NCBI GenBank assembly: GCA_015232565.1
Contig: JADFZK010000006.1
Location: forward strand, 796-64,795
Length of the DNA: 64,000 nt
Origin: Candidatus Omnitrophota bacterium
Lineage (GTDB): Bacteria > Omnitrophota > Gorgyraeia > Zapsychrales > Fredricksoniimonadaceae
Reading direction: 5' to 3'
Below the pieces are notes generated by a model. That model was not told the origin of the DNA. It made no database searches and saw nothing but the letters and a program-made list of their open reading frames with translations. Below, piece after piece: positions 59,982-64,000 of the stretch. The number at the start of each line of letters is the position of its first letter. Position 1 is the stretch's first letter. The position numbers and the translations under genes were made by a program.

Positions 59982-60008
59982 CACGTTCGAGCTGTTCTTG
60001 TTTGGCTT

Positions 60009-60080
60009 GGCAAGCAGTTGACCCACTCGTGAAGGGTTACAATCCGAGCGTCTTTTTGATGTCTTTGATAAGAAGATATA
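60009..60080. repeat. ~72 nt direct repeat R1 (about 95% identical to R2 at 62391..62461)
   Basis: GGCAAGCAGTTGACCCACTCGTGAAGGGTTACAATCCGAGCGTCTTTTTGATGTCTTTGATAAGAAGATATA matches 62391-62461 apart from 3 substitutions and 1 indel. Confidence 0.7.
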
Positions 60081-60135
60081 AACGAGCGCTTTGCCGTTGC
60101 CGTGGCTTTGGTGGCCGAGCCAGGTGTCAATTAAT
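60081..60135 (-). pseudogene. decayed remnant of a GNAT-toxin (tacT-like) gene, internally deleted
   Basis: 60081-60111 matches 62601-62630 of the intact GNAT gene (~28/30). 60104-60135 matches 62716-62748. Together with R1 this reproduces the tacT 3' region with deletions at CGTGGCYTTG microhomologies. Confidence 0.45.
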
Positions 60136-60561
60136 GGAACGTGATTTGTACGGCAGGGCTTCGAGGGTAATGCTTGTGGCCAGGGGTTCGAATTCGGGGT
60201 CTTTGTGCACCAGGAGCGCCTTGGTTTCCAGGGCGGTCGCCGCAATAAAGGCATCGGCGAAAGACAGTCGGCAGGTCGCTTTTATCCGTCCGGCGGCCAA
60301 GGTTATGCGTTCATTGGAGTGCACAATAGTTACCGGTAATTCTTTAAGAAGAACCACCAGTTTGCGTGCGGCCGCAAGGCCATTCTTCTGGCAAACGATA
60401 TAATACACTTCTGACATAGTGGCGAAAGAAATAAAAATTTTGCGGTGTTCATTCAATGCTTCTTTTAATAGCGCACCAACGCGCGCCGAGCCGGGTTCAT
60501 CCTGAACGTATGCCAGAATTGCAGAGGTATCCAGAACGCAGGCTTGCCGGTCAGCGGCCAT
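60127..60561 (-). CDS. vapC: PIN-domain ribonuclease toxin VapC
   Basis: PIN fold acidic residues (VLDTS…, …SFADAF…); 144 aa; overlaps vapB by 11 nt. Confidence 0.8.
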   Translation of the reverse strand: MAADRQACVLDTSAILAYVQDEPGSARVGALLKEALNEHRKIFISFATMSEVYYIVCQKNGLAAARKLVVLLKELPVTIVHSNERITLAAGRIKATCRLSFADAFIAATALETKALLVHKDPEFEPLATSITLEALPYKSRSIN

Positions 60562-60781
60562 GGCGGCGCTCCTCGGCGCGGTATTTCAGCAGGGCGGGGG
60601 ATAAGTCTGTTCCTTTGAGGAATCCGCGCAAAGCGGTAATCGGATCAGATGGGATAGGCACTACTGTGATGCTATGTCCGTCGTCCAGCCATTCCAGGCG
60701 GGTTTTGGGCGTAATATTGTAACGTTTCCGGATAATAGTTGGAACCACTGTTTGTCCGCGAACCGAGATGGTGCTGGTCAT
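60551..60781 (-). CDS. vapB: AbrB/SpoVT-type antitoxin VapB
   Basis: N-terminal swapped-hairpin motif (ISVRGQTVVPTIIRKRYNI); 76 aa; immediately upstream of vapC. Confidence 0.75.
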   Translation of the reverse strand: MTSTISVRGQTVVPTIIRKRYNITPKTRLEWLDDGHSITVVPIPSDPITALRGFLKGTDLSPALLKYRAEERRHGR

Positions 60782-60872
60782 GTTTGATCCTCCTTAAGTT
60801 AAGTATACATTGCGTTATCGATAAAAACAAGATTATTTGTAGAAGCGTCTTACCGGTTTATTTGCTTGTGGC

Positions 60873-62403: not shown

Positions 62404-62461
62404 CGCACTCGTTAAGGTTACAATCCGAGCGTCTTTTTGATGTCTTTGATAAGAAGATATA
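62391..62461. repeat. ~71 nt direct repeat R2, overlapping the 3' end of the GNAT toxin gene plus 27 nt downstream
   Basis: See R1; 62418-62461 is the GNAT gene 3' end on the minus strand. Confidence 0.7.
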
Positions 62462-62921
62462 GGTGAAGCGTATCGGTTGGGGAAGGATCAAAACCAAGTT
62501 GTTCGTAGAAGCTTTTAGCCTCGGTGTCTTTCGCGTGAACCAGAACGGCGCGGCCGCCAATAATTTCGGCAGCGTCAACGATTCTTAAGAGTGCGTCACG
62601 AACAAGCGCTTTGCCGATGCCGTGGCCTTGTTCTGTTTTATCAACAGCCAAACGAGCAATGATGATAACGGGAACTGGATGGTTCGCGAGACCCTTACCG
62701 ATATGTTGCGGTGTTGTGGCTTTGGCAACCGAGCCGGGTGTTAATGTATAGTAGCCAGCGATCTTGGCGGCTTTGGTCGTGACATAGGTTCTGGCCGATC
62801 CGTTCAGATTGTTGCTGAGAGCAAAGTTCTTAAGGTAATTATTTAAAGGCTCAGCACCGCAGTCAAAATTTTCGACAACATGGTGCAGGTCCAGAAGGAT
62901 GGGGCTTTTGAGCTTATCCAT
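62418..62921 (-). CDS. GNAT-family acetyltransferase toxin (TacT/KacT/AtaT-like)
   Basis: FDCG…LN.YL…RTYV…GYYTL…RLAVD..EQGHGIGKAL…FY…GF motif set; 167 aa. Overlaps the upstream DUF1778-like antitoxin by 8 nt. Confidence 0.8.
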   Translation of the reverse strand: MDKLKSPILLDLHHVVENFDCGAEPLNNYLKNFALSNNLNGSARTYVTTKAAKIAGYYTLTPGSVAKATTPQHIGKGLANHPVPVIIIARLAVDKTEQGHGIGKALVRDALLRIVDAAEIIGGRAVLVHAKDTEAKSFYEQLGFDPSPTDTLHLYLLIKDIKKTLGL

Positions 62922-63189
62922 GAAAAATATCTGCAGCCTTAAATAGCTTTTTTAGTTTGGCGTTCTCGCGGGCAGGGCGGTCCAAAGCTGCGCTAAAAAC
63001 CTTCCATTGGGCCTCAGGCAGGGCGAACCGGGTCTTGCTGGCCACCAGATCCTCAGCTTCCTTGATCGCGCTGGTTAATACAAACGCGGAGAGTTTCATG
63101 TTCTTGAGACCGGCGGCATAGACCAGGAAATCCTTTTGGGAGTTTTCGATCCGCAGGTCGATCCGGGTGTCTTTTTGTATGACTGGCAT
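62914..63189 (-). CDS. DUF1778/RHH antitoxin (TacA-like) partner of the GNAT toxin
   Basis: 91 aa: DTRIDLRIENSQKDFLVYAAGLKNMKLSAFVLTSAIKEAEDLV is typical of GNAT-toxin antitoxins. Confidence 0.75.
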   Translation of the reverse strand: MPVIQKDTRIDLRIENSQKDFLVYAAGLKNMKLSAFVLTSAIKEAEDLVASKTRFALPEAQWKVFSAALDRPARENAKLKKLFKAADIFHG

Positions 63190-63350
63190 AGGTGATCCTT
63201 TCTTTTATCCCGCTCCCAGCCCCTTTGAGGAGGGCGGGATCCACTTTGCCTTGACTGGCCAAGGACAAGTTCGTCAGACGTATTGTCTGACTTTACATTT
63301 CAAGGATACCATATTGTACACACTTTGTCCATACTAACTAATGAAAAAGA

Positions 63351-64000
63351 TTATTTACTTGGGGTGTTTTGATCCTTAAGCCCGGCATTGTGGAGGTAGC
63401 GGAAATAGAATTCTGCGGCTTGCGGGTTATGGGGATTTAGGCGCAGGGCTTGCCGGATATCCCTTTTGGCTTGGGCGAAGTTGCCCCGGGTTTGATAATA
63501 AGACGCTCGGAGCAAAAAGATCTGCTCGCTGGTGGGGTAGTCTTCGGCTCCGCGGGCCAGAAGCTCTTCGAGTTCAGCCAATCTTTTTTGGGCTTTATAA
63601 AACTCGATCAGTGAAATAAGTGCGTCGAGGTTCCTGGGCGCCAGGCCCAGGGAAGTTAGCAGGTCTTGCCAGGCTTTTTCGTATCGTGCCGTTTTAATGA
63701 ACACTCCCGCCCGCCAGGCATAAAGCCGGGCATTGTTTTTATTCACGGTCAGCGCTTGATCGTAAACTTTTAAAGCCTGGGCGTGATTTCCGCTATGCTC
63801 GAAAGATAAGGCCAGATAGTGATTGGTGTCCAGATGCGCTGGTTCCAGCCTGACTGCGTTGGCGTATTCGCTGGCCGCGTTCCGGAATTCTCCGCGGTTG
63901 AAATAATATGACCCCATGGCCCGTGCCACAAAAGGGTCCCGGGGATAAAGCGCTTTGGCTTGCTGGAACAGCTTAAGCCCGCGTTCGGGATAGCCGTAGC
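63351..64000 (-). CDS. TPR-repeat protein, 5'-truncated by the window edge
   Basis: The frame is open to position 64000 upstream of the annotated GTG. Multiple TPR units (…AKALYP…ALSFEHSGNHAQALKVYDQAL…). Confidence 0.7.
   Translation of the reverse strand, partial: YGYPERGLKLFQQAKALYPRDPFVARAMGSYYFNRGEFRNAASEYANAVRLEPAHLDTNHYLALSFEHSGNHAQALKVYDQALTVNKNNARLYAWRAGVFIKTARYEKAWQDLLTSLGLAPRNLDALISLIEFYKAQKRLAELEELLARGAEDYPTSEQIFLLRASYYQTRGNFAQAKRDIRQALRLNPHNPQAAEFYFRYLHNAGLKDQNTPSK

Follow-up and report, generated by a model that had tools for sequence, protein, structure and literature searches.

Cargo-variable defence hotspots are well known from Escherichia coli (PMC10121019) and Pseudomonas aeruginosa (PMC10250203), and a recent study of toxin–antitoxin (TA) systems in Photorhabdus (Mol Biol Evol 2026; PMC13617665) reported TA clustering in small, high-turnover spots, with toxin pseudogenes, DNA remnants outside open reading frames (ORFs) and repeated acquisition at the same location. 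The movement of minimal TA and defence modules without mobility genes is still poorly understood. Further known systems for comparison are the merodiploid intermediates of allelic exchange and homology-facilitated illegitimate recombination in natural transformation. Here we describe an islet in a 64-kb window (the whole stretch of DNA that was analysed, 64,000 nucleotides of contig JADFZK010000006.1) from a single metagenome-assembled genome (MAG) of Candidatus Omnitrophica, in which a vapBC TA module, a DUF4143 ATPase module and a tacAT TA module lie between two convergent genes, one for a nucleotidyltransferase (NTase, here 'N'; end at 59981) and one for a TPR protein (end at 63351). Our favoured explanation is that this islet is a small hotspot for self-contained, promoter-to-stop TA/defence modules. 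With about even confidence, we favour a history in which the hotspot is present in two tandem, diverged versions that originated as two alleles, an older tacAT in copy 1 having been destroyed.

The observation on which this account is built is a backbone of ~160 nt that exists as two tandem, diverged copies in direct orientation. Repeat pairs were defined by BLASTN of positions 59900–61100 against 62300–63500, together with a repeat search. A reading of the DNA made before this analysis, from the letters and ORF translations only (hereafter the sequence-only reading), had proposed a duplicated backbone with four repeat pairs; all four were recovered by BLASTN of the two units (E = 7 × 10−23 to 2 × 10−4), with similarity extending past the 71-nt repeat:

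R1, 60009–60080, against R2, 62391–62461: 96% identity, E = 7 × 10−23
Scrap a, 60081–60110, against 62601–62630: 90% identity, E = 1 × 10−5
Scrap b, 60095–60131, against 62709–62745: 78% identity, E = 2 × 10−4
TPR′, 60858–60945, against the 3′ end of the TPR gene, 63351–63438: 85% identity, E = 5 × 10−22, with an identical 47-nt core

For the outer pattern of R and for the TPR core, the window has exactly two occurrences each, against 0 expected by chance. Three blocks make up the backbone, namely B1 (TGTAACAC...GGCTTG), B2 (GGCAAGCAGTTGAC...AAGG) and B3 (the last ~90 nt of the TPR gene and a few downstream bases), and the layout is B1′–B2′–[tacT scraps + vapBC]–TPR′ in unit 1 (59977–60947) and B1–[ATPase]–B2–[tacAT]–TPR in unit 2 (60966–63440 and onward). 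The elements of the two units, other than the cargo genes, are as follows:

59977–60008, no strand: B1′ of unit 1, TGTAACACGTTCGAGCTGTTCTTGTTTGGCTT, aligning with 60966–60996
60009–60034, no strand: B2′ of unit 1 (outer R1), 24 of 26 positions identical to 62391–62416, found only twice in the window
60035–60080, minus strand: tacT 3′-end scrap (core of R1), codons ~153–167 and stop, 100% identical to intact tacT
60081–60110, minus strand: tacT scrap a, codons 98–107 (QSHGNGKALV), from the region of the Q-x-x-G-x-G acetyl-CoA motif, 27 of 30 positions identical to 62601–62630
60095–60131, minus strand: tacT scrap b, codons ~59–71 (LTPGSATKATAT), 29 of 37 positions identical to 62709–62745 and 30 of 37 to the L032 and L033 alleles (L-numbers are labels of related loci compared with the window)
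60858–60947, minus strand: TPR′, which repeats the final ~29 codons of the TPR gene but is non-coding, with a 47-nt identity island at 60883–60929
60948–60965, no strand: junction spacer between units 1 and 2, 18 nt, unique in the window
60966–60996, no strand: B1 of unit 2, two tandem TGTAACACTCRGGC 14-mers, then TTG
62391–62415, no strand: B2 of unit 2 (outer R2)

As a tandem duplication or a merodiploid would have it, B1–B2–cargo–B3 occurs twice, with a single novel junction (60947/60948–60965/60966). The cargo position is equal in both units, between B2 and the TPR stop codon, and cargo begins at most ~20 nt from the TPR or TPR′ stop codon in each. R, which had been presented as a repeat in its own right, holds up as a 96% identical pair (with an identical 46-nt core, 60035–60080 and 62416–62461) but is not free-standing: it comprises 26 nt of locus-specific backbone and the last 44–46 nt of tacT, the outer 26 nt being assigned to the locus backbone because tacAT similarity in relatives stops at the tacT stop codon. 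Block B2 is not part of tacAT modules elsewhere. Similarly, the copy of the TPR 3′ end is indeed non-coding, but its limits are 60858–60947 rather than 60873–60936.

With B1, the duplicated backbone extends further to the left than the sequence-only reading had placed it. For this block, the score of the local alignment of 59977–60012 with 60966–60999 (TGTAACAC...GCTGT...GGCTTG) was attained in 1 of 500 shuffles and, in a restricted search space, in 29 of 5,000; the octamer TGTAACAC occurs in the 64 kb only at 59977, 60966 and 60980, all within B1 copies. The tandem 14-mers TGTAACACTCGGGC and TGTAACACTCAGGC (60966–60993) lie directly upstream of the ATPase −35 box, and their absence from L046 and L053, two relatives of the ATPase module, marks them as local backbone rather than part of that module; unit 1 has one degenerate 14-mer, which overlaps the NTase stop codon. 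The region before R1 showed no similarity above chance to the region before R2, and the 18-nt spacer resembled the 3′ end of N weakly, and not significantly, in a global alignment. The R core (60043–60057 and 62424–62438) has a 15-nt inverted match, at 14 of 15 positions, in the TPR gene at 63497–63511 (TCCGAGCGTCTTTTT and AATAAGACGCTCGGA), which may be chance. A 'TTGACC-N14-TACAAT' string in outer R was considered as a promoter and rejected on our own reading, its spacer being too short; no terminator-like site was found in the repeats, the regional number of such sites is at the level of shuffled sequence, and Rfam gave no credible match.

That vapBC replaced a former tacAT in unit 1 is, as an outcome, well supported, and here the sequence-only reading was borne out: three collinear tacT scraps remain on one strand, and the vapC TGA stop falls inside scrap b. 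These scraps and TPR′ are non-functional scars. The 16-nt overlap of scraps a and b is explained by the position of the deletion between them, which falls in a 9-nt direct repeat of tacT (CAARGCCAC, or GTGGCYTTG on the plus strand; tacT gene positions 198–206 and 292–300). This deletion took out 94 nt and shifted the frame; between scrap a and the 3′ end a further 139 nt of tacT is missing. The GNAT gene fragments had been described as joined at microhomologies, which is real at this one internal deletion, but fragments a and b are overlapping rather than discrete pieces. A reading of the scraps as a decayed copy of the intact tacT did not survive comparison with other alleles. Across scraps a and b, 56 of 67 positions match resident tacT and 56 of 67 likewise match the foreign allele L033, and at the nine sites where resident tacT and L033 differ the scraps side 4:4, which argues against a decayed copy of the resident gene and suggests that the unit-1 scraps stem from a tacT allele other than the intact copy in unit 2. 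The 46-nt tacT 3′ end, on the other hand, is matched by foreign alleles at 31–37 of 46 positions only and by the resident gene at 46 of 46, with the switch in identity falling exactly at the 60080/60081 junction.

Divergence between the units is likewise uneven. The 243 aligned backbone and scrap positions hold 33 mismatches, which are clustered and leave two mismatch-free runs flanking the cargo site, one of 52 nt (the end of B2 and the tacT 3′ end) and one of 47 nt (the TPR core; the probability of a second-longest run of at least 47 under random placement of mismatches is 5 × 10−6). Identity outside these islands is 64–90%, and the copies thus lack the uniform similarity that follows a recent in-situ duplication. 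The clustering of mismatches and the two identity islands therefore show that the units have exchanged sequence at both cargo flanks. TPR′ keeps the reading frame, and four of the five codon differences in its helical part are synonymous; a premature stop interrupts its loose C-terminal tail, which is scrambled. The synonymous bias therefore fits divergence of TPR′ while it was part of a working gene. On these alignments, unit 1 resembles a divergent allele of the locus more than it does a recent duplicate made in situ, and the islands of 52 and 47 nt have the look of tracts left by later conversion or crossover.

The vapBC, tacAT and ATPase cargoes are minimal promoter-to-stop modules, each occurring independently elsewhere, and the module limits read from relatives in unrelated contexts coincide with the backbone blocks. 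Pfam agreed with the gene identities first proposed (vapBC, DUF4143 ATPase, tacAT and TPR), with vapB just under its cut-off:

60127–60561, minus strand: vapC, PIN toxin, full length (Pfam PF01850, E = 3 × 10−20)
60551–60781, minus strand: vapB, AbrB/MazE-type antitoxin (Pfam MazE_antitoxin, 22.4 bits; cut-off, 24.7)
60782–60841, minus strand: vapB promoter and leader, conserved with L006 to about 60841; −35 TTGTTT and −10 TATACT by our own sequence reading
60992–62389, plus strand: ATPase module, with its own promoter, a 16+16-nt inverted repeat (61031–61062) and the AAA_14/DUF4143 ORF
61075–62403, plus strand: AAA_14 + DUF4143 ATPase ORF (Pfam PF13173 and PF13635)
62418–62921, minus strand: tacT, GNAT toxin, intact (Pfam Acetyltransf_7, _10 and _1)
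62914–63189, minus strand: tacA, DUF1778/TacA1 RHH antitoxin (Pfam PF08681, E = 2 × 10−20)
63190–63337, minus strand: promoter and structured 5′ leader of tacA, marking the module's upstream limit, with a promoter-like site at 63331–63303

In the vapBC module, the VapC motifs VLDTS, SEV, FADA and KDPEF are common to homologues, which align end to end and match in length, and the NCBIfam VapC model scored 33.5 bits, under its 80-bit equivalog cut-off. The two genes overlap by 11 nt, and VapB–VapC pairing recurs in about 25 loci. VapC is a predicted PIN RNase held in check by its antitoxin, an ordinary type II TA. Its best relative in a genome-collection search with VapC (L006, 72% amino-acid identity) lies in an unrelated context, and nucleotide similarity to that locus spans 60136–60841. 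When the regions upstream of vapB and tacA were compared, only a 13-nt AAGATTATTT-type match was seen, which was not significant; the motif belongs to the vapBC module, because it is kept in L006. Two other related loci, L027 (~9811–10219) and L028 (~9749–10096), have an intact vapB followed by a vapC cut to residues 76–144 or 79–110. No compared locus has two of the islet module types (vapBC, close ATPase, tacAT) together; the partial exception is L007, where a distant ATPase match (25% identity) lies about 5 kb from that locus's own vapBC.

The ATPase had been described as sitting merely between the two units; it is instead an insertion exactly between B1 and B2 of the unit-2 backbone. In-silico removal of 60997–62390 leaves unit 2 as ...CAGGCTTG/GGCAAGCAGTTGAC..., collinear with ...TTTGGCTT/GGCAAGCAGTTGAC... 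of unit 1, where B1′ and B2′ are contiguous and therefore resemble an 'empty site' for the module. Nucleotide similarity to its relatives (87% for L046, 83–89% for L047, 69% for L053 and 71% for L036) starts at 60992–60994, at the −35 box, and stops at 62386–62389, 1–2 bases before R2; the ORF itself reads four codons (RASS, then the stop) into backbone B2. The PADLOC PDC-S01 profile PDLC04787 matches residues 24–437 (E = 7 × 10−115), and the ATPase is on this evidence a candidate defence gene of the PDC-S01 type. PDC-S01 ranks with the commonest of the predicted defence genes, and for the majority of PDCs in the core defensome experimental validation is still to come (PMC12988326). The ATPase promoter (TTGACA/TACAAA) is followed, just before the ribosome-binding site (RBS), by the 16+16-nt inverted repeat TACTAGGCAAAATTAG/CTAATCCTGCCTAGTA (promoter to repeat, 60995–61062); promoter and palindrome are both kept in L046, and the repeat looks like a putative operator travelling with the module. 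In L047 (1990–2647) the ATPase gene is internally deleted, the segment matching window positions 61207–61877 being gone. Upstream of the ATPase in L046, the closest relative, a 60-amino-acid ORF (52–234) resembles the N terminus of an AbiEii-type nucleotidyltransferase toxin, as read by eye; if AbiEii-type, it would be another truncated toxin beside this ATPase family.

In the tacAT module, tacA lies directly upstream of tacT in the same direction and overlaps it by 8 nt (62914–62921), a pairing also seen in L001–L004, L032 and L033. A sequence search of the Protein Data Bank (PDB) with tacT returned 15 GNAT matches (E = 5 × 10−34 to 3 × 10−14), including 7ak7 (the best), 5fvj, 6g96, 6gts, 6ajn and 5zgn, of which 5zgn is the only one named by its depositors (KacT); the others we take to be TacT or AtaT. 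About 2,100 tacT homologues were found, and the acetyl-CoA motif (Q/R-x-x-G-x-G/A) is present as QGHGIG at tacT residues 98–103 and kept in homologues. Unit 2 thus appears to hold an ordinary TacAT-type GNAT/RHH type II TA, with a predicted aminoacyl-tRNA acetyltransferase checked by its antitoxin. The closest tacAT homologues (76–88% nucleotide identity) have differing neighbourhoods (DUF4160/DUF2442, Fic/DUF4172 and HigBA), and similarity runs from 63337, upstream of the tacA promoter, to the tacT stop at 62416–62418 and none beyond; the homology of L001–L004 to the tacAT upstream region likewise ends at 63337. Between promoter and RBS, the tacA leader (63206–63290, minus strand) is an 85-nt segment with three stable hairpins (minimum free energy −40.4 kcal/mol, z = −3.5, equalled by 0 of 200 shuffles). 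The L003/L004 allele has this segment too, with other stem sequences in the first hairpin but pairing retained, and the L001/L002 allele, collinear in all other respects, lacks it; an optional regulatory leader and a small inserted element are both conceivable.

Under the favoured origin from two alleles, two diverged alleles of one locus would have come to lie in tandem through one illegitimate join (TPR′ 60947/spacer/B1 60966). Integration of a DNA fragment of a related strain, either Campbell-type or homology-facilitated, is one way in which this could have happened. Modules would have been gained by illegitimate insertion at the hotspot and lost by deletion, and short gene-conversion or crossover tracts would later have equalised the 52-nt and 47-nt flank islands. 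The old tacAT would have been destroyed in three ways: the promoter, tacA and tacT codons 1–58, gone where vapBC now ends; 94 nt, in a slippage-type deletion between the 9-nt direct repeats; and 139 nt in a further deletion. The same style of erosion is seen in relatives, with vapC truncated in L027 and L028 and the ATPase internally deleted in L047. An insertion of vapBC beside tacAT, followed by deletion, fits the data equally well as a one-step swap. A more specific form of this history, which we put forward tentatively and consider unlikely, is that the tandem array represents a merodiploid stage of allelic cargo exchange that has yet to be resolved, a fragment of ~2.4 kb with one hotspot allele having entered beside the other. 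If so, the 72-nt R repeats and the 47-nt TPR islands would be the arms for collapse of the array, R1 × R2 leaving the tacAT allele and TPR′ × TPR the vapBC allele; if true, the array would be a direct snapshot of exchange, through flank homology and between strains, of TA/defence modules without mobility genes.

Several points weigh against the favoured history. No sister genome was present in the searched collections, so that the single-copy ancestor, the donor and the sequence of events are alike inferred; the nearest relatives by the neighbouring GT39 gene are 60% and 51% identical and without synteny. A protein search with the TPR C terminus returned no real homologues but also missed its own protein, an absence that is to be taken cautiously, and a degenerate DNA pattern for the TPR core had 0 matches in JGI metagenomes. 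The junctions are known from the MAG assembly alone, the similarity of the B1 copies is of moderate significance (P about 0.002–0.006), and the arguments on allele origin draw on few sites (nine informative tacT sites and five TPR codons). In addition, an in-situ tandem duplication with long divergence and patchy conversion would give an equal final structure.

This last alternative is possible, if less than likely. It holds that a ~1.1-kb segment (from the N stop codon to 90 nt within TPR) with one tacAT was duplicated in place, that copy 1 then decayed, took up vapBC and lost most of its tacAT, that copy 2 took up the ATPase, and that occasional conversion from the functional copy kept the islands. 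Direct orientation, a single novel junction and equal block order in both units all fit this simplest account, which makes a donor unnecessary, and identity islands are what conversion of a dead copy by a functional one is expected to leave. However, the units differ by about 20–25% outside the islands, the tacT scraps are no nearer to resident tacT than to foreign alleles (four of nine informative states are common to L033), and the differences between TPR′ and TPR are mostly synonymous in the structured part, which is unexpected for a never-functional fragment. The duplication could be rescued by a later replacement of the unit-2 tacAT with another allele. A different course was proposed in the sequence-only reading, in which vapBC flanked by backbone replaced tacAT by recombination at conserved flanks, that is, in one step by double homologous crossover in one copy of the duplicated locus. 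The start of vapBC within ~20 nt of the TPR′ stop, the same place as tacAT in unit 2, and the identity islands in both flanks are in keeping with such a swap, but on its left side vapBC joins within the tacT ORF, at codon ~58 and abutting the vapC stop, and not in a shared flank. Moreover, two further internal tacT deletions would be needed, which a double crossover leaves unexplained; divergence is greatest in the segments directly adjoining the cargo (scraps a and b and the TPR′ tail), the opposite of what crossover in the inner flanks would be expected to give; and the donor arrangement was not found among the related loci compared. A swap in one step is thus improbable.

Whether the tandem arrangement is a product of assembly, or of site-specific recombination, was also weighed. 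Since the source is a MAG, strain alleles of the forms N–B1′–B2′–scraps–vapBC–TPR and N–B1–ATPase–B2–tacAT–TPR might have been joined by the assembler at exact repeats; the structure reads exactly as 'allele 1 then allele 2', and exact repeats of 46–47 nt are present. Yet TPR′ runs 18 diverged bases past its island, and the 18-nt spacer has no second copy in the window and is not the sequence with which either allele would be expected to continue. A chimera seems quite unlikely because the inter-unit junction lies off the exact repeats and has this unique spacer. Repeats of 46–47 nt are also shorter than the largest k-mers of common metagenome assemblers, and the tacT scraps beside vapC would be real even if the join were chimeric. 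Very improbable, finally, is an integron-like or other recombinase system with R or the TGTAACAC block as its recombination site. Short repeated blocks do separate independent promoter-to-stop modules, and TA cassettes are common in integron arrays. Half of R, however, is tacT coding sequence, and the repeat blocks fold no better than shuffles (z from −0.96 to +1.05). They lack inverted-repeat architecture and attC-type core sites and within the 64 kb are confined to this locus. The modules have promoters of their own and are found on either strand, and a recombinase is absent among the eight islet proteins. An integron-type array was rejected on the absence of attC-like structured sites, the absence of an integrase among the islet proteins and the overlap of R with coding sequence.

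The islet lies in the last 5.5 kb of the window, which holds, in order, the AbiEi_2-like gene, N, vapC, vapB, the ATPase, tacT, tacA and TPR. Its border genes are as follows:

58493–59209, plus strand: AbiEi_2-like putative antitoxin or regulator, left islet border (Pfam PF09952, E = 8 × 10−7)
59199–59981, plus strand: NTP_transf_8 nucleotidyltransferase 'N' (Pfam PF12281, E = 6 × 10−11), with its stop codon within the first TGTAACAC motif
63351 to beyond 64000, minus strand: 3′ part of the TPR gene (Pfam TPR families), right islet border, running off the window

The AbiEi_2-like gene and N overlap by 11 nt, had no match among PADLOC or NCBIfam models, and in their overlapping arrangement (58493–59981) resemble a type IV/AbiE-style pair; they may be an undescribed TA or abortive-infection pair at the islet border. 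The TPR gene holds its 47-nt identity island at 63376–63422. The window is chromosomal, with genes for IF-2, UvrA and type IV pili, and no tRNA was found within it. A Pfam scan of 58.5–64 kb revealed no transposase, integrase, recombinase or other mobile-element gene among the eight islet proteins. The G+C content of 50000–57000, which holds GT39-type and other membrane or glycosyltransferase-like genes, is 0.35–0.42, below that of the islet and the TPR gene (0.45–0.54).

Overall, the locus bears out, rather than changes, the current view that modules are acquired at permissive spots, erode rapidly and lose their toxins, and is a clear but ordinary instance of TA module turnover; by itself it cannot settle the mechanism of exchange. 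Such turnover had been described as rarely caught in the act, a description that does not hold, as TA remnants, toxin pseudogenes and repeated acquisition have been documented at large scale (PMC13617665). The locus does offer base-pair-resolved junctions for vapBC, tacAT and the PDC-S01 ATPase, together with an eroded predecessor and islands of identity in the flanks, and is a useful worked example from the little-studied phylum Omnitrophota.

Compared with described systems, the tacAT allele is like the TacAT/AtaRT/KacAT family in its GNAT toxin, its overlapping upstream DUF1778/TacA antitoxin and its Q-x-x-G-x-G motif, known here from sequence alone, and differs in an 85-nt structured 5′ leader that some close relatives are missing. 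As in the Photorhabdus TA spots (PMC13617665), type II TA modules cluster in a permissive intergenic spot with pseudogenes, remnants and independent acquisitions at one location, and the modules act as autonomous units unlinked to their neighbours. That study drew on many related genomes and on experiments, whereas the Omnitrophota locus is known from one MAG; unlike the Photorhabdus spots, it has no mobile-element gene among its eight islet proteins, and its spot backbone is itself tandem-duplicated, with different cargo in each copy. In its order of arm, allele 1, arm, extra DNA, arm, allele 2 and arm, its short, near-identical arms and its one illegitimate junction, the array resembles merodiploid intermediates, although its arms are only 47–72 nt and there is no evidence of a circular or foreign intermediate. 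Finally, like the E. coli and P. aeruginosa hotspots, the locus has alternative cargo at one position between flanking genes that may be fixed, and a candidate defence gene, PDC-S01, stands beside TA modules; those hotspots are defined over hundreds of genomes, usually with one allele in each, whereas in Omnitrophota two 'alleles' stand in tandem in one genome.

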